Source: Candidatus Daviesbacteria bacterium RIFCSPLOWO2_01_FULL_37_10 (GTDB lineage Bacteria; Patescibacteriota; Microgenomatia; Daviesbacterales; UBA10151). Taken from it: a stretch of DNA of 41,717 bases. Positions 4,638 to 41,703 of this stretch are shown here, in pieces. Within the stretch, counting starts at the first letter, position 1. Each line of letters opens with the position of its first letter. The notes beneath the pieces are model-generated. The model was given only the letters and a program-made list of their open reading frames with translations. It searched no databases and was not told the DNA's origin. Both the position numbers and the translations under genes were made by a program. The DNA lies in NCBI GenBank assembly GCA_001776865.1, contig MFDK01000004.1:1-41717 (forward strand), in the 5' to 3' direction.

Positions 4638-4704
4638 GTCATTCCGGACTTGATCCGGAATCTATACACATATTGTATAGATCCTGAAACGAGTTCAGGA
4701 TGAC
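4638..4704. repeat. Composite GTCAT...ATGAC hairpin element (three consecutive hairpins)
   Basis: Three hairpins: gtcattccggacttgatccggaatc (4638-4662), ctatacacatattgtatag (4662-4680) and gatcctgaaacgagttcaggatgac (4680-4704). They fill the rplV-rpsS spacer. The architecture matches 8871-8929. Confidence 0.85.
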
Positions 4705-7973: not shown

Positions 7974-7998
7974 GTCATCCTGAACGAAGCGAAGGATC
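7974..7998 (+). repeat. GTCAT-headed hairpin repeat
   Basis: Reads gtcatcctgaacgaagcgaaggatc in the rpsJ-rplC spacer. It is preceded by gtgacgagc, the tail motif of the ruvX-flanking elements. Confidence 0.75.
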
Positions 7999-8870: not shown

Positions 8871-8929
8871 GTCATTCCGAACTTGTTTCGGAATCTTACT
8901 GTCAGATCCTGAATCAAGTTCAGGATGAC
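8871..8929. repeat. Composite GTCAT...ATGAC hairpin element
   Basis: gtcattccgaacttgtttcggaatc (8871-8895) and gatcctgaatcaagttcaggatgac (8905-8929). It is a near copy of the element at 4638-4704. Confidence 0.85.
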
Positions 8930-22249: not shown

Positions 22250-22383
22250 GGTCTGATTTAATCAGACCGAAGACCCTGAATTTATTGAAGGGTCAAGGAT
22301 TAAAATTGTAGAATTCAGGAGTTACCAAAATATTCTTCGAGCGAAGTGAGAAGTTACCATAAGAATATTAATATTTTTATGGT
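22250..22383. repeat. Repeat-dense spacer (several hairpin modules shared with other loci)
   Basis: Four modules. ggtctgatttaatcagacc is at 22250-22268. gaccctgaatttattgaagggtc is at 22272-22294, with a copy at 29732-29753. attcttcgagcgaagtgagaagt is at 22332-22354, with a copy at 41441-41463 and an inverted copy at 41653-41675. accataa...ttatggt is at 22356-22383. Confidence 0.75.
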
Positions 22384-22474
22384 ATGTTCTCGCTCGCCTC
22401 GCTGAGTCGGCGAAGCGGGCTAATCACTCGAACAATAAATCTGCTGGGAAGAACTGAACTCATACATAAGACTA

Positions 22475-24544: not shown

Positions 24545-24817
24545 ATGAAAAAGATTACTCAGAAAGTTTTGAAATATACTGTAATTTTTGAACCAGCAAA
24601 AGAAGGTGGATATGTTGTGTCTGTACCTGCATTACCGGGTTGCGCTACTCAAGGAGAAACTTTTGAAGAAGCAATCTATATGATTAAGGACGCTATAAAA
24701 CTTTATCTTTCCGTATTAAAAGAAGATGGCGAAGATATTCCTCAGGAAAAGGACGATATATTAATAACTAAAATCTCCATACCTGTACCTGCCATTTCTA
24801 TCAATGGCATCCTTTAA
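24545..24817 (+). CDS. hicB: HicB-family antitoxin
   Basis: KYTVIFEPAKEGGYVVSVPALPGCATQGETFEEAIYMIKDAIKLYL is the HicB/UPF0150 fold signature. It overlaps hicA by 14 nt. Confidence 0.85.
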   Translation: MKKITQKVLKYTVIFEPAKEGGYVVSVPALPGCATQGETFEEAIYMIKDAIKLYLSVLKEDGEDIPQEKDDILITKISIPVPAISINGIL

Positions 24818-25019
24818 ACCGAAAGAAATTATTTCTATTCTTCAGAAACTTGGATTTATTAGAAAAAGACAATCAGGCAGTCATGTCATAATGTATCATC
24901 CAGAGACAAAGATAAGTCTTCCAGTACCGCTTCATACCAAAGATATTAAGAGAGGACTAGTTTTAAGTATCATTAAACAAGCTAAATCAAACGAGGAAGA
25001 GTTTATTAAACTGAAATAA
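24804..25019 (+). CDS. hicA: HicA-family mRNA interferase toxin
   Basis: ...KEIISILQKLGFIRKRQSGSHVIMYHPE... is the HicA/YcfA signature. Confidence 0.85.
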   Translation: MASFKPKEIISILQKLGFIRKRQSGSHVIMYHPETKISLPVPLHTKDIKRGLVLSIIKQAKSNEEEFIKLK

Positions 25020-25022
25020 GTT

Positions 25023-25979
25023 TCAAGGATTATTTGCTACATTTTCCAGGTGTTCTTCCAGGGTTTTTCCGTAGTGTGAATTTCCTTTACTATCATGATA
25101 GTAATATAAATACTGAGTATTCGGGTTTGCATTTGCAACAGCTTCCAGCGATGATAGGGATGGATTACAAATTGGAGCTGGCGGAAGACCTGGATTCTTA
25201 TACGTATTATAAGGAGATTTTATCTCTTTATCGTCTTTTGTAATATGTCTTTTCCACCAGGATTTTTCAGACTGCTGATATCCAAGGGCATATTGAACAG
25301 TTGCATCAACATCCAGTTTCATTCCAATATTTAACCTGTTAAGTAAAATCCCGGCAACTTCTGTTCTTACTTTATCTGACCTTCCTTCTCTTTCCACAAG
25401 CGAGGCTAAAATTACTCCTTCTTTCTCAGTTAACCCTTTAGCTTTTATTTTTTTCTTTAAATCATCCGCGTATTTCCTGTTAAAATTATCTTGAAGAGTC
25501 TCTGTTATATACTCAACTTCTGCGTCTTTTGGGAAAAGATACGTATCCGGAAACATATAACCTTCTTTTGATAGTTTAAGAAATTGTCCATTGTCAATTT
25601 TTAAGTTCCCGTTTAACTTTTCTGCCATTTCTTCTACTCTCCAACCTTCAATAAAAGTTACCCAAACATCATCTGTTCCGGAAGTTAAAACATTTGCAAT
25701 TTCAGAAATGCTCATGGAAGGGGAAAGCTTAAACGACCCTGCTTGAATCCTGGAAGCCAGATTATTTTGTCTGGCATAAATTTTAAAAGTAAGTTCTGAG
25801 CGGATTAAATTATCATCTTTTAATCTTTTAGCAATGCTAGATATCCCTTCACTTTTGGGAATTACTATTACCCTGGCATTTTCATCAGAGCTTACCGGAG
25901 AAGTTTGTACCTTCCACAAACCACCGGTAACTATAAACATCAGAAGAAAAATTAATATTATGGCTAAGAATTTTTTCAT
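25023..25979 (-). CDS. mltG: Endolytic murein transglycosylase MltG (YceG-like)
   Basis: N-terminal TM helix, then ...ILASLVEREG...NTYKNPGLPPAPICNPSLSSLEAV...YYYHDSKGNSHYGKTLEEH... Confidence 0.9.
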   Translation of the reverse strand: MKKFLAIILIFLLMFIVTGGLWKVQTSPVSSDENARVIVIPKSEGISSIAKRLKDDNLIRSELTFKIYARQNNLASRIQAGSFKLSPSMSISEIANVLTSGTDDVWVTFIEGWRVEEMAEKLNGNLKIDNGQFLKLSKEGYMFPDTYLFPKDAEVEYITETLQDNFNRKYADDLKKKIKAKGLTEKEGVILASLVEREGRSDKVRTEVAGILLNRLNIGMKLDVDATVQYALGYQQSEKSWWKRHITKDDKEIKSPYNTYKNPGLPPAPICNPSLSSLEAVANANPNTQYLYYYHDSKGNSHYGKTLEEHLENVANNP

Positions 25980-25992
25980 AAATATAAAAGCA

Positions 25993-26131
25993 GCGAAGTC
26001 ACGAGCTAGAAAAAATTTGGCGAGGAAGTTGTGTAGTTGCTATTCAACTTCCGAGCAATAAGTGAACGCATGAGAAATAGTTCATGATAATCACTTAAAG
26101 CGCGCGAACGGTTTTTTCAGCCGTGACGAGC
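25993..26131 (+). repeat. Structured ~135-nt element, copy 1 (downstream flank of ruvX)
   Basis: Head gcgaaGTCACGagc, closing pair gtcacg/cgtgac (25998-26003 and 26122-26127), inner hairpin ggaagttg-tgtagttgctatt-caacttcc (26024-26052) and tail cgtgacgagc. The last 15 nt are the ruvX 3' codons. Confidence 0.75.
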
Positions 26132-26509
26132 TGATTTCTCATCTAAATAACACTGTAAGATTTCTGCTGCAGCTTGGGCATCACTGGTTTTGCGCTTTTT
26201 TCTGGAAACTCCCATTTCTATCATTAGTTTACCGGCATTTTGAGTGGAAAGTGTTTCATCTGCAGTTTCTACATTGAAACCTTCTTTTTTCAAACCATTA
26301 ATCAGCCTTTTTGCAGCCTTTCCAGTTTCCCCTTCAGGCATCCCAACTATCACCTTATCCACCCCAATTTCCCTTATCTCCCTTATTATTTTATCGATTG
26401 CATCAGATAAAGAGGAAACAGAAATTACTTTATAAAGAGAAGCAAATTCCCCTGCAGATATAGCCAAACCTATTCTCTTTAACCCAAAATCAACACCCAA
26501 GTATTTCAC
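26117..26509 (-). CDS. ruvX: Putative pre-16S rRNA nuclease / Holliday junction resolvase-like YqgF
   Basis: (GTG start) MKYLGVDFGLKRIGLAIS... is the YqgF signature. Confidence 0.9.
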   Translation of the reverse strand: MKYLGVDFGLKRIGLAISAGEFASLYKVISVSSLSDAIDKIIREIREIGVDKVIVGMPEGETGKAAKRLINGLKKEGFNVETADETLSTQNAGKLMIEMGVSRKKRKTSDAQAAAEILQCYLDEKSARHG

Positions 26510-26542
26510 TAAATGATTTTATCACAGAGTCTGCTAAGAGTG

Positions 26543-26677
26543 GCGAAGTCATGAGCATAAAAGCAATTTGAAAATTTTTGTGTAGTCCTAAATCAAAAAT
26601 TTTCTCATAACGAGGCTAGTGAATATATTTAGTGATTCAGAATTATTAGCCGAGTGATGCTTTTTGCCATGACGAGC
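26543..26677 (+). repeat. Structured ~135-nt element, copy 2 (upstream flank of ruvX)
   Basis: Head gcgaaGTCATGagc, closing pair gtcatg/catgac (26548-26553 and 26668-26673), inner hairpin gaaaatttttg-tgtagtcctaaat-caaaaattttc (26570-26604) and tail catgacgagc. Confidence 0.75.
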
Positions 26678-26691
26678 CACTCACAATTTGA

Positions 26692-26717
26692 GATTGCTTC
26701 GCTACGCTCGCAATGAC
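26692..26717 (-). repeat. GTCAT-headed hairpin repeat
   Basis: The plus strand reads gattgcttcgctacgctcgcaatgac. On the minus strand this is GTCATTGCGAGCGTAGCGAAGCAATC. Confidence 0.8.
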
Positions 26718-26729
26718 GAGGAGGGGGAA

Positions 26730-27371
26730 TCAAATCATTTTCCCTATAACTACTAGCCTTTTTGTATTTAATCCTGGAGGAACACAGGTCATAAGGGAAA
26801 TATATCTTCCTACCCCATCCGGAGGAAGGGTAACAGAGGTCTCTTTCGGATCCACAACTCTGATCCCTAAAACTTTATATGTAAAATCTCCCCCTGCAGA
26901 AACTTTAATAATATCTCCTTTTTCAAGCCTTTGTAAATTTGCAAAAATTGCTCTATAATTTTTACTACCTCTGTAAATAATCGGTATTGCCGAATGACCT
27001 GAAATAAAAATATTACCTTTCTCCCCAGGAAGCGCGGTTCCCGGCAGATGAACCAATCCTTCACTTAAATTATTACTCTCAACTAAAACTTTTGCCTCTT
27101 CAATATCTAAGCGTGGAACTGAAATTAAAAATTCCGTATACGGAATAAACTCTCTTTTTGAGAAAGATATTAAAGCAGGAAAGTTATCTCTGGTGTTTTG
27201 AATGGAAACTCCCAAAACTCTATTGCTTTCTGAAATTGGACTCACAAGTATATTTTTTGCTTCTATATTGGCAAGTTCCCACAGCTTAAAATTTATAACC
27301 GGTATGGCTATCTGTACTAGAACGAAAAACCCTGCTAATAAAAAAATTGCCGGAATAATTTTTGCAATCAC
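26730..27371 (-). CDS. Sortase-family transpeptidase
   Basis: (GTG start) N-terminal TM helix, ...NIFISGHSAIP... (His), ...YISLMTCVPPG... (TLxTC-like Cys) and a downstream Arg. Confidence 0.8.
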   Translation of the reverse strand: MIAKIIPAIFLLAGFFVLVQIAIPVINFKLWELANIEAKNILVSPISESNRVLGVSIQNTRDNFPALISFSKREFIPYTEFLISVPRLDIEEAKVLVESNNLSEGLVHLPGTALPGEKGNIFISGHSAIPIIYRGSKNYRAIFANLQRLEKGDIIKVSAGGDFTYKVLGIRVVDPKETSVTLPPDGVGRYISLMTCVPPGLNTKRLVVIGKMI

Positions 27372-29653
27372 TTTAAGCTTACCTCAATTTTAATATTACG
27401 TTCTAAAATTGGCAATCTCGCAAGTTGCGCTGGAATAGGCGGTGTGAGTTTTATTTCTGACCCTAAAACATTTTCGTATGATTTTAAAATATCTGCCGCA
27501 GCTTTTGGAGTTTTTCCTGCCAACTTTTTCTTAATTTCGCTCTCATTTATTTTTGGCATCAGTTTTGCTTTGAAACGTGCTAAAAATATAAGCCTTCCAT
27601 CTTTTTCTACTTTAGATACATCAGCTTGTGTTTCTGTATCAGTAAGCCTTAGTTCAAACCCTTCCGGTACGTTTGTCTCAACAAGTTTTGAAACTATGCG
27701 TTTAAGATCATCATCTAAATATACTGTACCTTTATAATTAATAGTTAAATTTAAGTTGAACTCTCCCGCCTGATCGTTAATATTTTTACTAAATGATTTT
27801 TTTGTGATTTCCTCACTTAGTGCTTCTTCCAGAACTTTTTTACCCTCAAGTTTGGCCTGAAGTTTTTCCTGAGCCTGTTTTCTTAAAGCTGCAGCCAATG
27901 ATGCAAGTAGTTTCTTCTGGTCGGAATCTGATACAACAGTAACCTCTTTTGATGTTCCTCCCGAAAAATTACCCTCGGATTTTGCTGAAAAATCAGAAGA
28001 TGGTACTCCGGAAATAGTAAGTTGAGTCCCGGAGGGAATGTTTCCGTCTGCTCCAATCGATACGGAAACAGCATCTACAGTTGCCTTTCCGAAAGAAATA
28101 CCATCTTCAGTTGCAGATTGTGAAGCTATTGTAGCGGATGAGTCCAGAGTAAATTTAAGATTATCAGATCCCACAAGGATAGTCCCTTTGGAAAAGGTTT
28201 TAGAAGAATTTGTCTTATTTGTAATAATCACCGATCCTTTTGCATTTTCCCCAACCTGTTTTTTACCTGTTGCACTTCCCTTTTCGCTTCCGCTAATTTG
28301 AGTTTCAACTATTTGACCGGGTATTTTTTTACCTTCCTCATCAACTTCTTTTACACTAGGATCTGCTGTAACTTGAGTATCTTTTTCAACAACTCTCGGC
28401 TCTACAAATACCGTAACTTTTGCCTGAGGAAGGAAAATATATGATAAGACAAGAAGGATTAAAATTACAACAGGAATTATTAGCTTTAGATTGAAAAATC
28501 TACTACCTGATCCTTCTAACTTCTCCCTTGTTACTGAAGGTGTCGCTAATGAGTTATCCTGAACAGGAAATCCCAAGTTATGTTGTGTTTTTTCCATCTC
28601 TCCATCTTCTTCCTGACCGAAATCTTCATCCAGTCCATCAGTAGTTTGGACAAATTCATCATCAGGATTAACGTCTTTTTCCATGACCCTTAAATCTTCA
28701 GTTCCATCGTCTTCTTTTATTAAACTCTCATCCTTTTCATCTTCAGCAGAAACTTTTTCCATCACATCTCCCTGAACAAAACCTGTATCCTCAACCGGAA
28801 TTTGTTTTTCAGGTGGTTCAGGAATTTTTACTTCTTCTTCCTTTGGCATAGCAGAAACTAAAGGTGAGTTCTTTACAAGCTGTTCTACAGGCTGGTACTT
28901 TATATCCGGCACCAGTTCAACTCCTCCGGCAAGCGCAACAGCTTTAATTTCCAAACCCCCTTCCAGGATATCAATTTTAGGGAGATGTAGAAACGAAAGC
29001 CGATTCATCCAGGGGAATGACAAAAGTTCATTTTTTTGTTTATCAAGGCTCTCTGCGTTTAGGCTGAAAAGAAGCATCCTTGAAGGAAGAACCTCAACCT
29101 CGGTAAATTGCAAAAGAAGCTTTTCTATATCCTCACCCAAACTACCGCTTCTTTTTATTATCTTTGTTCCATCAATTTTACCTCCTCTTGAAACCGTAAC
29201 TAAAACATGCCCTTCTCCAACTCCTGTAAGTATCGCCGTAGTTGGTGCACTTTCTTTTTTCTCAAGAAAATGAAAAATAGCATGTGAGGTTGAAACAAAA
29301 GCCATTGGTTTAAGCTCAAGGCTTTTTACAACATTCCTTAAAAGCTGCAAATATGAATCTTTTAAATTGTCATCAACCAGCCAGGAATCAGGAACTCCAA
29401 AGAGTATTTTTGTAGGCTCAATTTGAATTTCCCCTAAAGCCTGATCTAAAAGCCTGTCGGCAACTGTAACAATTTCCTCCTCGGACGAATATTTTGAAGA
29501 AACTATATTTAAAACTTTTAACTTATCTTTTTCTATTGTCCAGAGGCAAACCCTTAAAGTTTCCGGTCCAATATTAAGAGCAAAAAAAGTCTCAGTTTGT
29601 TCCTCTGGTTTACCGAAAGGCAGCATTGATGTAACTTTATCCAAAAAACTCAT
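27368..29653 (-). CDS. Large membrane protein: N-terminal FtsA/PilM-like (actin-fold) region, acidic linker, one TM helix, ~350-aa extracytoplasmic domain
   Basis: From the ATG at 29651-29653: MSFLDKV... The N-terminal ~260 aa (FFALNIGPETLRV...LKPMAFVSTSHAIFHFL...AILTGVGEGHVLVTV) weakly resembles the FtsA/PilM pattern. The TM helix is LKLIIPVVILILLVLSYIFL. The stop overlaps the sortase start. Confidence 0.6.
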   Translation of the reverse strand: MSFLDKVTSMLPFGKPEEQTETFFALNIGPETLRVCLWTIEKDKLKVLNIVSSKYSSEEEIVTVADRLLDQALGEIQIEPTKILFGVPDSWLVDDNLKDSYLQLLRNVVKSLELKPMAFVSTSHAIFHFLEKKESAPTTAILTGVGEGHVLVTVSRGGKIDGTKIIKRSGSLGEDIEKLLLQFTEVEVLPSRMLLFSLNAESLDKQKNELLSFPWMNRLSFLHLPKIDILEGGLEIKAVALAGGVELVPDIKYQPVEQLVKNSPLVSAMPKEEEVKIPEPPEKQIPVEDTGFVQGDVMEKVSAEDEKDESLIKEDDGTEDLRVMEKDVNPDDEFVQTTDGLDEDFGQEEDGEMEKTQHNLGFPVQDNSLATPSVTREKLEGSGSRFFNLKLIIPVVILILLVLSYIFLPQAKVTVFVEPRVVEKDTQVTADPSVKEVDEEGKKIPGQIVETQISGSEKGSATGKKQVGENAKGSVIITNKTNSSKTFSKGTILVGSDNLKFTLDSSATIASQSATEDGISFGKATVDAVSVSIGADGNIPSGTQLTISGVPSSDFSAKSEGNFSGGTSKEVTVVSDSDQKKLLASLAAALRKQAQEKLQAKLEGKKVLEEALSEEITKKSFSKNINDQAGEFNLNLTINYKGTVYLDDDLKRIVSKLVETNVPEGFELRLTDTETQADVSKVEKDGRLIFLARFKAKLMPKINESEIKKKLAGKTPKAAADILKSYENVLGSEIKLTPPIPAQLARLPILERNIKIEVSLK

Positions 29654-29713
29654 GCGGTTTTGCCCCAAAAGAAGGAGGCATTAATAGAATATTAACACAT
29701 TCAAATATCTTCC

Positions 29714-29825
29714 GTCATACTGAACTTGTTTACCCTGAATTTTATTGAAGGGTTTCAGGATCTAATACTACTGTCATTCTAGCTTGTCCAGAATCTTCCT
29801 TGTCATTCCTGCGAAAGCAGGAATC
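29714..29825 (+). repeat. Three GTCAT hairpin repeats, the first with a nested insertion
   Basis: 29714-29762 is gtcatactgaacttgttt[accctgaattttattgaagggt]ttcaggatc. 29773-29795 is gtcattctagcttgtccagaatc. 29802-29825 is gtcattcctgcgaaagcaggaatc, identical to 41410-41433. Confidence 0.85.
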
Positions 29826-40250: not shown

Positions 40251-40315
40251 TCATTCTGAGCCGAAGGCGAAGAATATAAACACGAAATTATATCCTTCAC
40301 TCCGTTCAGAATGAC
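40251..40315. repeat. MITE-like element bounded by inverted (G)TCATTCTG termini
   Basis: tcattctgagccgaaggcgaagaat ... ttcactccgttcagaatgac. It lies between the Lon-like gene and rnj. Confidence 0.75.
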
Positions 40316-41354: not shown

Positions 41355-41703
41355 GTCATCCTGAGGCGTAGCCGAAGGATATAATCTTATCTTATATTTT
41401 ACCTCTTTTGTCATTCCTGCGAAAGCAGGAATCTATAATTATTCTTCGAGCGAAGCGAGAAGTAACTTTCAACATCCTCGGACAAACATATCACGATCGT
41501 TATATAAATGTCCCAAAAACTTACTATCTACTTAACATGGCGGGACTTGATACTTCGCATTAAATCTAGAGATTCTTCACTTCGTCCACTCACAAAGTGA
41601 GCGAGACCTCGACTTTAGTCGGGCTCAGAACGACAATAATTTTTTTAAGGAAACTTCTCACTTCGTTAGAAGAATAAAGATCCTGAAACAAGTTCAGGAT
41701 GAC
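41355..41703. repeat. Non-coding, repeat-dense tail of the window (at least 6 hairpin modules)
   Basis: The modules are 41355-41380 gtcatcctgaggcgtagccgaaggat; 41410-41433 gtcattcctgcgaaagcaggaatc; 41441-41463 attcttcgagcgaagcgagaagt; ~41569-41636, an inverted nested unit; 41653-41675; and 41679-41703 gatcctgaaacaagttcaggatgac. Confidence 0.8.

Follow-up and report, generated by a model that had tools for sequence, protein, structure and literature searches.

The window considered here is a stretch of 41,717 nucleotides on contig MFDK01000004.1 of Candidatus Daviesbacteria bacterium RIFCSPLOWO2_01_FULL_37_10. It derives from Rifle-type groundwater and has about 37% G+C, nearly all of its genes lie on the minus strand, and the GC skew of its plus strand is uniformly negative. 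Read in gene sense, the region of interest comprises a sortase gene, a small hairpin, copy 2 of an element of about 135 nt, ruvX, copy 1 of the same element and yceG/mltG, after which hicAB follows on the other strand. An earlier note on this DNA had described two copies in the same orientation with a shared head and tail, and the sequence bears out its coordinates. Copy 1 runs from the head GCGAAGTCACGAGC at 25993 to the tail GCCGTGACGAGC at 26131 and copy 2, oriented in the same way, from GCGAAGTCATGAGC at 26543 to GCCATGACGAGC at 26677. The head GCGAAGTCAYGAGC and the tail GCCRTGACGAGC are common to both copies and invariant between them, and exact matches of the two occur in the 41.7-kb window at these sites only; a weak third 'tail' at 26710-26721 is part of a small adjoining hairpin. 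The two copies are members of an interspersed element family of Daviesbacteria that had not been described before and is both strongly structured and strongly conserved, and it is very probably a dispersed structured element family that is at hand rather than a gene cassette.

The strand bearing the G-A mismatches of the element, here called the GA strand, is the plus strand of the window and is antisense to the flanking genes. On it the members share one fold, which from the outside in consists of an outer stem (P0), a GAA/GA internal loop, a stem P1 (GUCAYG/CRUGAC), a bulged A, a further stem P1b, a three-way junction and two hairpins. The long closing stem is almost perfectly Watson-Crick. 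Past the bulged A, copy 1 has GCU/AGC where copy 2 has GCA/UGC, followed in each by an A/U-rich stem of 7-10 bp. The complementary strand also folds well, with z = -6.6 for copy 1 and -6.4 for copy 2 against shuffled controls.

Much of what the earlier note had seen in this fold holds. The closing pair covaries between the copies (gtcaCg/cGtgac in copy 1, gtcaTg/cAtgac in copy 2), and across the family the corresponding alignment columns 17/191 hold U-A in 13 members and C-G in 14. Likewise, the stems of the inner hairpin, ggaagttg/caacttcc and gaaaatttttg/caaaaattttc, pair without a mismatch and show no sequence relationship to each other. The 13-nt loop that they enclose is conserved in the family in its length and its 5' UGYAG, but the identity between the two copies is 8/13 without gaps and reaches the claimed 10/13 only with a shift of 1 nt. 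The extent of the element, while real, had been drawn too short: the outer stem enters the supposed flanks (CAGC/GCUG in copy 1, GAGUGGC/GCCACUC in copy 2) and covaries there, its columns across the family reading CA/UG, UG/CA, CG/CG and UC/GA. In copy 1 an imperfect AAAAG/(A)UUU extension lies farther out. That description left out a further hairpin altogether, which is larger and has a conserved loop (ACUnAAUGnUUCAG).

Three subtypes can be told apart. Type 1 comprises copy 1 and the members at the loci L011, L013, L014, L020, L021 and L023; type 2 comprises copy 2, L009, L010, L012 and others; type 3 comprises L017, L022, L026 and a second copy at L011 (L011:117-266, also L011b). A tandem G-A mismatch in the context CGAG/CGAG marks the bases of the arms, all three of them in type 1, and is lacking from hairpin 1 in type 2. 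The loop of hairpin 1 opens with UGYAG and often contains CUCUAAU, while that of hairpin 2 contains ACUnAAUGnUUCAG. Type 3 has the reverse of types 1 and 2, with a AUGAUUCAG-type loop on hairpin 1 and a GUCUCUAC-type loop on hairpin 2, and amounts to a natural module swap on a three-way junction. An origin of type 3 by inversion of the interior is ruled out, as the GU-GA...GA-AC frame is collinear and only the loop modules are exchanged. The hairpin-1 stem of copy 1 is also that of L020, a member located between rpsB and tsf.

The family was assembled from several searches. A scan of one genome per species with the head...tail pattern gave eight matches, seven of which are true elements in metagenome-assembled genomes of Ca. 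Daviesbacteria or other Patescibacteria. The eighth, an exact 24-base head...tail match in Glycomyces sambucus (L008:1097-1236), lies inside coding sequence, does not share the fold and was set aside as chance; it shows that a match to the head...tail pattern does not suffice to identify a member. A like scan of metagenome contigs added 21 loci from groundwater and sediment, leaving 24 distinct pattern matches once duplicates were removed. A covariance model, R1, built from nine sequences recovered all of these, matched the window copies at E of about 1e-36 to 1e-40, and added the divergent L011:117-266, in which head and tail are changed in a compensated way (GUCGCA/UGCGAC) and the 3' side of the internal loop is AA. 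Two further orthologous copies came from the loci of relatives (L037 and L038). Collecting copies and modelling their covariation, as the earlier note had proposed, yields 27 distinct full-length members with compensated pairing, all from Ca. Daviesbacteria/Patescibacteria. The copies are 60-88% identical. At least five, independent paralogues within one genome, occur in the sampled parts of JAQTPP01, namely two at L011, one at L013 and two at L045. One of the latter (L045:20886-20957) is a type-3-like copy after a greA-like gene.

Among the 27 distinct sequences, compensatory double changes are found in 33 of the 42 consensus pairs, and standard pairs make up 95.6% of the pair cells. When the partners are slid by 1-3 columns, this value falls to 36-46%, and none of 500 shuffles attains the observed values. 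Together with compensated changes in orthologues, these counts uphold the earlier note's argument for selection on a folded structure. Since the search pattern prescribed the head and tail, part of their invariance follows from the way in which members were found; in the divergent copies of L011, L038 and L045 they vary, again in a compensated manner. Loop-loop pseudoknots, pairing the hairpin-1 CUAAU with a junction AUUAG or UCUCUA with the hairpin-2 UAGAGA, were rejected because they can form in some members only and do not covary. A coding role was rejected as well: of 25 elements, 9 leave one gene-sense frame open and 1 does so on the other strand, a bias due to the pyrimidine-rich loops, and the peptides are not conserved.

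No match to the whole window was obtained from Rfam 15 at the gathering threshold, and at E <= 10 the window copies and the L011 and L012 members gave chance-level matches only (E > 0.6). A scan of the window for tRNA and tmRNA found none, the viral contigs scanned held no copy, and a literature search on repeats or structured RNAs of Daviesbacteria and the Candidate Phyla Radiation (CPR) returned nothing relevant. The coordinates of the copies, their parts and the neighbouring features are collected in Table 1.

Table 1. Features of the two element copies, the adjoining genes and the small hairpins (window coordinates)
Feature	Position	Strand	Parts and remarks
Element copy 1 (type 1)	25988..26136	+ (GA strand)	covariance-model match 25986-26138, 128 bits; fold z = -7.4
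Copy 1, outer stem P0	25991..25994	+	CAGC, partner GCUG 26130-26133; predicted fold, covariation
Copy 1, internal loop	25995..25997	+	GAA, facing GA 26128-26129; invariant among pattern-found members
Copy 1, stem P1	25998..26003	+	GUCACG, partner CGUGAC 26122-26127; fold, covariation
Copy 1, long-stem continuation past bulged A	26005..26018	+	GCU then GAAAAAAUUU, partner 26109-26121
Copy 1, hairpin 1	26019..26057	+	GGC-GA-(GGAAGUUG, loop UGUAGUUGCUAUU, CAACUUCC)-GA-GC; tandem G-A at base
Copy 1, hairpin 2 arm	26062..26109	+	GU-GA-ACGC...GCGCGC-GA-AC; loop diverges from family consensus
Copy 1, tail	26122..26133	+	CGUGAC-GA-GCUG; minus strand gives last RuvX codons and stop (SARHG*)
Element copy 2 (type 2)	26538..26682	+ (GA strand)	covariance-model match 26536-26684, 142-148 bits; fold z = -7.1
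Copy 2, outer stem P0	26538..26544	+	GAGUGGC, partner GCCACUC 26676-26682; predicted fold
Copy 2, internal loop	26545-26547	+	GAA, partner GA 26674-26675
Copy 2, stem P1	26548-26553	+	GUCAUG, partner CAUGAC 26668-26673
Copy 2, hairpin 1	26570..26604	+	GAAAAUUUUUG, loop UGUAGUCCUAAAU, CAAAAAUUUUC
Copy 2, hairpin 2 arm	26610..26655	+	AC-GA-GGCUAG (26-nt loop with UUUAGUGAUUCAG) UUAGCC-GA-GU
ruvX (Holliday junction resolvase-like)	26117..26509	-	homology with relatives stops at ...YLDEK
yceG/mltG	25023..25979	-	start codon 9 nt past the paired region of copy 1 (25988); without Shine-Dalgarno
Sortase gene	26730..27371	-	upstream, in gene sense, of small hairpin and copy 2
Small REP-like hairpin GTCATTGCGAGCGTAGCGAAGCAATC	26692..26717	-	adjoins copy 2; same place kept in L037, L038
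REP-like hairpins	4638-4662, 4680-4704, 7974-7998, 8871-8895, 8905-8929, 26692-26717	+, -, +, +, -, -	strands in order of position
REP-like hairpins (continued)	29773-29795, 29802-29825, 40291-40315, 41355-41381, 41410-41433, 41679-41703	+, +, -, +, +, -	strands in order of position

The orthologous region was reached through MltG homologues in nine other Daviesbacteria. There, sortase-ruvX-yceG is a conserved core order flanked by alaS on the upstream side and by rpoB/rpoC on the downstream side. Overlaps of 4 nt link the three genes in L042, L043 and L046, and sortase and ruvX are separated by 15 nt in L044 and by 7 nt in L047; ruvX overlaps or directly abuts yceG in all five loci, where genes that do not overlap are 2-15 nt apart. 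None of these junctions holds the element. Two relatives, L037 (MltG 81% identical) and L038 (71% in the database search, 69% by pairwise alignment), have an orthologue of copy 2 at the sortase junction, accompanied by the same small hairpin, and no second copy. In L038 ruvX is 4 kb distant and the element still stands beside sortase. A short, rearranged and degenerate copy occupies the sortase-ruvX spacer of JAQTPP01 (L045:9366-9450), with the head GCGAAGTCG...CGACGAGCC, a second tail and an 8-bp outer stem that pairs perfectly (GGAGCAGC/GCTGCTCC).

The copy-2 orthologues are 91% (L037) and 83% (L038) identical to the window copy. In the flanking sortase, ruvX and yceG genes, four-fold degenerate sites are 35-59% identical and codon positions 1 and 2 are 77-87% identical, so that on this comparison the orthologous elements are more conserved than the neighbouring proteins. 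The changes that do occur in the stems are compensated: GUCAUG/CAUGAC becomes GUCACG/CGUGAC and then GUCACA/UGUGAC, AC/GU becomes GC/GC, and GC/GC becomes UC/GA. Because the orthologues retain such identity next to four-fold sites at 35-59%, the element is under strong selection where it sits. It is therefore not junk in decay, and a function is likely at every site.

The same loci bear on the status of ruvX, which the earlier note had described as bracketed by direct repeats in the manner of a cassette. If so, the repeats would be attC-like sites delimiting a mobile ruvX gene cassette. Integron attC sites measure 57-141 bp, are recognised as folded single strands, have conserved extrahelical bases and stand in a fixed orientation to their ORFs with minimal spacing. 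Two same-orientation copies on both sides of one short gene recall this arrangement, as do a size of 135-150 bp and a structure that is conserved while the sequence varies. However, the relatives keep the order sortase-ruvX-yceG with no element at all in five cases and with one element in two, and in L038 the element stays at sortase although ruvX has moved off. A comparison of ruvX flanks in relatives, which the earlier note had put forward as a check, finds that filled and empty junctions differ by the element without any gene and gives no sign of cassette behaviour. Neither intI nor attI was found in the neighbourhood of the window copies or in the syntenic loci, and by eye, with no formal pattern search run, no RYYYAAC/GTTRRRY core is present at the ends GCGAAGTCAYGAGC/GCCRTGACGAGC. 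Unlike attC, the Daviesbacteria element thus lacks an integrase and the R''/R' cores and moves without a gene; its neighbours here are core housekeeping genes in conserved synteny, and the family also occupies many unrelated operons. A ruvX cassette is contradicted by these loci and is the least credible of all the readings considered.

The two copies are independent occupants of adjacent junctions; filled and empty sites differ by the element alone, and their comparison shows no target duplication. The sortase/ruvX copy is old and shared with L037 and L038, while the ruvX/yceG copy is lineage-specific and rewrote the last codons of ruvX. As the earlier note had recognised, the tail of copy 1 supplies the final five RuvX codons. 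Homology among RuvX proteins stops at ...YLDxx, and the tails beyond it are SARHG* in the window, LRHSERSEESQD in L037 and SSNPALE in L040; these three lineage-specific tails are created by insertions at the gene end.

Across all members, 36 of 39 flanking ORFs run opposite to the GA strand, the three exceptions being one divergent pair, one convergent pair and one distant gene. The element mostly occupies the entire spacer between co-directional genes, with gaps to the ORFs of mostly 0-15 nt. The upstream stop codon falls either 0-5 nt ahead of the outer stem or 4-49 nt within it, and the next start codon follows about 0-25 nt past the element, often without a Shine-Dalgarno sequence; AAGGAG is visible only at L009 and L027. 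Genes just downstream (window 25979 and 26509; L011, L020, L022, L026) have an A/U-rich start region 5-20 nt past the stem, and ruvX starts with GTG. In element-free relatives the same genes are translationally coupled via ATGA-type overlaps. The host operons are unrelated and include sucC/sucD-like, dcd-dcd, murC-murB, rpsB-tsf, purP-purP, recR, a glycosidase gene before polA, and YfhO-methyltransferase. In one case the element is found in frame within polA, in the linker between the 5'-nuclease and the polymerase (L013:295-445; Ca. Daviesbacteria STB_119, JAQTPP010000008.1), where it adds about 46 residues and no stop codon. This polA reads ...GAARHGAKNRS...TARDFAA..., the same frame as the SARHG* of RuvX, and represents either an in-frame insertion that the protein tolerates, comparable to those of Rickettsia palindromic elements, or the joining of two once-separate genes.

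Signals for transcription were sought around the copies, and promoter and terminator consensus sequences were no more frequent there than in shuffles. The terminator scan returned only a trivial 5-bp hairpin on the plus strand. In gene sense, CUUUUAUAUUU lies past the stem at copy 1, L011 and L026, and there is none at copy 2. Upstream on the GA strand there is no conserved promoter, this sequence being the antisense of a different gene start at each locus. Three tiny SOLiD metatranscriptomes do not contain the element sequence; five DNA read sets (X1-X5) contain the locus.

The best explanation overall, held tentatively and at a little less than even confidence, is a structured insertion element resembling miniature inverted-repeat transposable elements (MITEs), REP, Correia and Rickettsia palindromic elements (RPEs) that is carried in operon transcripts. 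Its spread would have been that of a non-autonomous element, mobile or duplicative, in the way known from MITEs, REP/REPINs, Correia elements and RPEs. Since the co-directional flanking genes leave no room for a terminator plus a promoter, each copy must be transcribed within the operon mRNA. In that transcript, the near-perfect duplex of about 25 bp and the junction may have a selected role as an intercistronic signal for processing, stability or uncoupling. In one version, drawn by analogy with Correia elements, phage T7 intercistronic sites and rRNA intervening sequences, the duplex might be a site for a double-strand-specific RNase of the RNase III type. That the insertion element acts in the operon transcript in one of these ways is possible and was ranked first among the specific readings, ahead of action at the DNA level and then of an antisense small RNA, with a ribozyme-like RNA and the cassette far behind in that order. 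Several observations weigh against it. Neither a target-site duplication nor a transposase or other gene that might mobilise the element was identified, and the copy number is low. The tandem G-A motifs and A-rich loops lie on the antisense and not the mRNA strand, the intrahelical mismatches on the GA strand are purine-purine in 26 cases and pyrimidine-pyrimidine in 10, and the GA strand is on average 4 kcal/mol more stable than its complement. Lastly, G-U pairs are not tolerated on either strand to the degree usual in RNA families, which is uncommon for an RNA acting from one strand: 1036 pair cells contain 981 Watson-Crick pairs, 8 G-U/U-G and 11 A-C/C-A, or about 6 G-U against 3 A-C once doubtful alignment columns are discounted.

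The strand-specific features would be accommodated if the element were a stand-alone small non-coding RNA of about 135-150 nt made from the GA strand, antisense to the junction and acting in trans via a protein or as a cis regulator. The conserved CGAG/CGAG tandem G-A at the arm bases together with the GAA/GA loop, the purine- and A-rich unpaired bases, the conserved loop motifs UGYAG and ACUnAAUGnUUCAG and the better folding of this strand all agree with it, and conservation above that of neighbouring proteins and hairpin modules in swapped order are familiar from structural and permuted non-coding RNAs, respectively. Against it, no -35/-10 is conserved at a fixed distance, the upstream sequence differs at each locus, there is no consistent terminator, and G-U is not in excess of A-C; an independent gene would need neither a fixed orientation nor zero spacing to its neighbours, and one copy lies in frame within polA. 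Such an RNA is rather unlikely. Pairing that is strictly Watson-Crick, with G-U and A-C both at about 1%, would fit a folded strand or a cruciform recognised as DNA by a recombinase or an HUH-type transposase, as in REP/REPIN-RAYT, IS200/IS605 or attC systems, or by a host DNA-binding protein, with the orientation locked to the replication fork. Consistent with this, the termini and the unpaired or bulged bases stay constant while the stems vary, a pattern known from attC sites and REPs; there is presence/absence polymorphism in many contexts; and the window has at least 13 small REP-like hairpins, inverted doublets included, whose CTCGTCAT also opens the big element in gene sense. Genes and GC skew share one orientation, so that orientation to genes and to replication are indistinguishable here. 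However, apart from an unrelated DDE transposase in L040, the window and syntenic loci hold no transposase, integrase or RAYT gene, and no target duplication is seen. Moreover, the conservation of loops and stems between species goes far beyond what neutrality would predict and would not be needed at each site by a selfish substrate, and the small hairpins occur in both orientations whereas the big element does not. The GA strand would also be the template of both the leading strand and transcription and hence the strand least often single-stranded. Action at the DNA level is doubtful, if somewhat less so than an antisense small RNA. Finally, the three-way junction, the tandem sheared G-A at the arm bases and the two loop modules in either order would suit a new CPR-specific class, either a structured non-coding RNA or a mobile element recognised as a single strand, that is made from the strand antisense to operon junctions and bound by a dedicated protein, for instance to police or process operon transcripts, and is more than a passive palindromic insertion; this too is an unlikely reading.

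Turning to known motifs, the sTRSV hairpin ribozyme has G8-A9-A10 beside helix 2, and its helix 3 and loop B read ACCAG-AGAA. A self-cleaving RNA of this kind on the GA strand would have P0, the internal loop and P1 as domain A and hairpin 2 as domain B, the two linked by a helical junction. The GAA-GUCA/UGAC of the element, in which GAA-GUCA is invariant, matches G8-A9-A10 and helix 2, and about half of the hairpin-2 loops open with YAG-AGAA in the manner of helix 3 and loop B, both being short motifs and hence a resemblance only. Two loop-bearing arms on a junction are also the natural layout of hairpin ribozymes (PMC8216279). In 941 hairpin ribozymes, however, G+1, C25 and A38 are perfectly conserved (PMC8216279). 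In the element the strand after UGAC is GAGC in all members, which makes +1 an A and leaves only two unpaired bases; conservation is also lacking at the equivalents of A38 and of C25, the latter a variable position after AGAA. Membership of the hairpin ribozymes is ruled out by these departures from the invariants; hairpin ribozymes have moreover never been found in DNA genomes (PMC8216279). The Rfam scans gave no hairpin-ribozyme match at E <= 10, the presence of this family in the library, where it should be included, not having been checked. A looser, ribozyme-like activity is very improbable. A k-turn is likewise ruled out, as GAA is followed by GUCAYG pairing Watson-Crick with CRUGAC, and the k-turn register would give U-G, C-C and A-A. 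By eye, the hammerhead core (CUGANGA...GAAA...UH) is incompatible with the invariant head and tail.

In kind, the family appears closest to Correia, ERIC, RPE and REPIN-type elements. Correia/NEMIS elements, which are MITEs of Neisseria, and ERIC/IRU are imperfect palindromes of 100-155 bp that lie between genes and are co-transcribed as long mRNA hairpins; the Correia hairpins are RNase III substrates that alter mRNA stability. The Daviesbacteria element is like them in size, intergenic dispersal and long fold. Correia elements end in inverted repeats of 25 bp, duplicate a TA target and are present in hundreds of near-identical copies in both orientations, whereas the Daviesbacteria element has a low copy number, no duplication seen, a three-way junction, a fixed orientation and compensated orthologues across species. 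As regards MITEs in general, the ends do form imperfect terminal inverted repeats (GCGAAGTCAYGAGC against GCTCGTCAYGGC, the reverse-complemented tail); the flanks are complementary and extend the stem instead of forming the direct repeats of a target-site duplication, and no autonomous parent with the same ends was seen in the sampled parts, the 41.7-kb window holding two copies. Near the window copies no integrase, transposase or reverse transcriptase was seen. RPEs are palindromes of about 100-150 bp in a reduced genome that insert at gene ends and in frame within coding sequence, to which the copy in L013 polA and the C-terminus of RuvX bear a likeness. They differ in having been studied mostly as coding insertions, while the Daviesbacteria copies are nearly all intercistronic and orientation-locked, and the sequences are unrelated.

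REP/BIME/REPIN sequences combine a short 5' motif with a hairpin, form inverted doublets, show correlated hairpin changes, have roles in mRNA stability and termination, and are associated with RAYT transposases. The small GTCAT hairpins of the window and their doublets resemble them. The 135-nt element does not, in that it is not a doublet of two REPs, its halves pair around a junction with conserved loops, and no RAYT was seen. The bcr4-6-type repeats of the Bacillus cereus group are interspersed, about 100-150 nt long, and carry compensatory changes that have been interpreted at the RNA level; they belong to another phylum and have another sequence, and the Daviesbacteria element is in addition locked in its orientation and lacks wobble pairs. 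Phage T7 intercistronic RNase III sites and rRNA intervening sequences are repeated stem-loops of one orientation, with internal loops and about two turns of duplex, that stand exactly between cistrons. They provide the functional analogy for the best explanation but are simple hairpins of 50-60 nt and are not mobile. Among all of these, the family is unusual in its three-way junction with tandem G-A, its strict orientation, its lack of wobble pairs and its conservation above neighbouring proteins.

CPR bacteria/Patescibacteria have tiny, poorly understood genomes of high gene density, from which hardly any non-coding elements have been described. With covariation of textbook quality, conservation above essential neighbours, an orientation rule and gain and loss at defined junctions, the family is a good candidate for experiments, and would represent either a new functional RNA or a new form of operon punctuation in a compact genome. 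The rewriting of a gene end at RuvX and the in-frame copy in polA matter for the annotation of these genomes, and the tempting reading of ruvX as a mobile cassette can be removed.

The small REP-like hairpins measure 23-27 nt and are built on the frame GTCAT-stem-loop-stem-ATC; they are found on both strands. A motif, hairpins and doublets, as in REP/REPIN sequences, are present among them. Inverted doublets similar to REPINs lie at 4638-4704 and 8871-8929, and one example, GTCATTCCTGCGAAAGCAGGAATC, occurs twice in identical form. In the hairpin that adjoins copy 2, the 5' end is the CTCGTCAT shared with the big element. Read through, the small hairpins give peptide-like tails on neighbouring ORFs. 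At L038:5795-5850, the small hairpin beside the copy-2 orthologue holds a nested hairpin (GTCATTCTGAGCGAAGC, then CGAGTTTGACTCGG as the nested part, then TGAAGCGAAGAATC), which suggests that the small repeats insert into one another. Upstream of rpoB, at 22338-22430 in the window, an intergenic palindrome is composed in a 'vocabulary' like that of the big element (CGAGCGAAGTGAGAAG...TTCTCGCTCGCCTCG, then GGCGAAGCGGG) and scores only 5 bits with R1; a related TTCTTCGAGCGAAGCGA is present at 41434-41460.

Two further features of the neighbourhood may be mentioned. The hicB-hicA toxin-antitoxin pair at 24545-25019 (+), between yceG and a NUDIX gene, is absent at this place in L037, L038, L042, L044, L046 and L047, and a different pair (DUF433/DUF5615) separates ruvX from yceG in L040; small insertions seem to favour the surroundings of yceG. 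Upstream of sortase, a 766-aa protein encoded at 27368-29668 (-) has no Pfam domain. Its position is kept in all examined Daviesbacteria loci (722-752 aa) and it overlaps the sortase start in most of them, and it is possibly a sortase substrate or surface protein.

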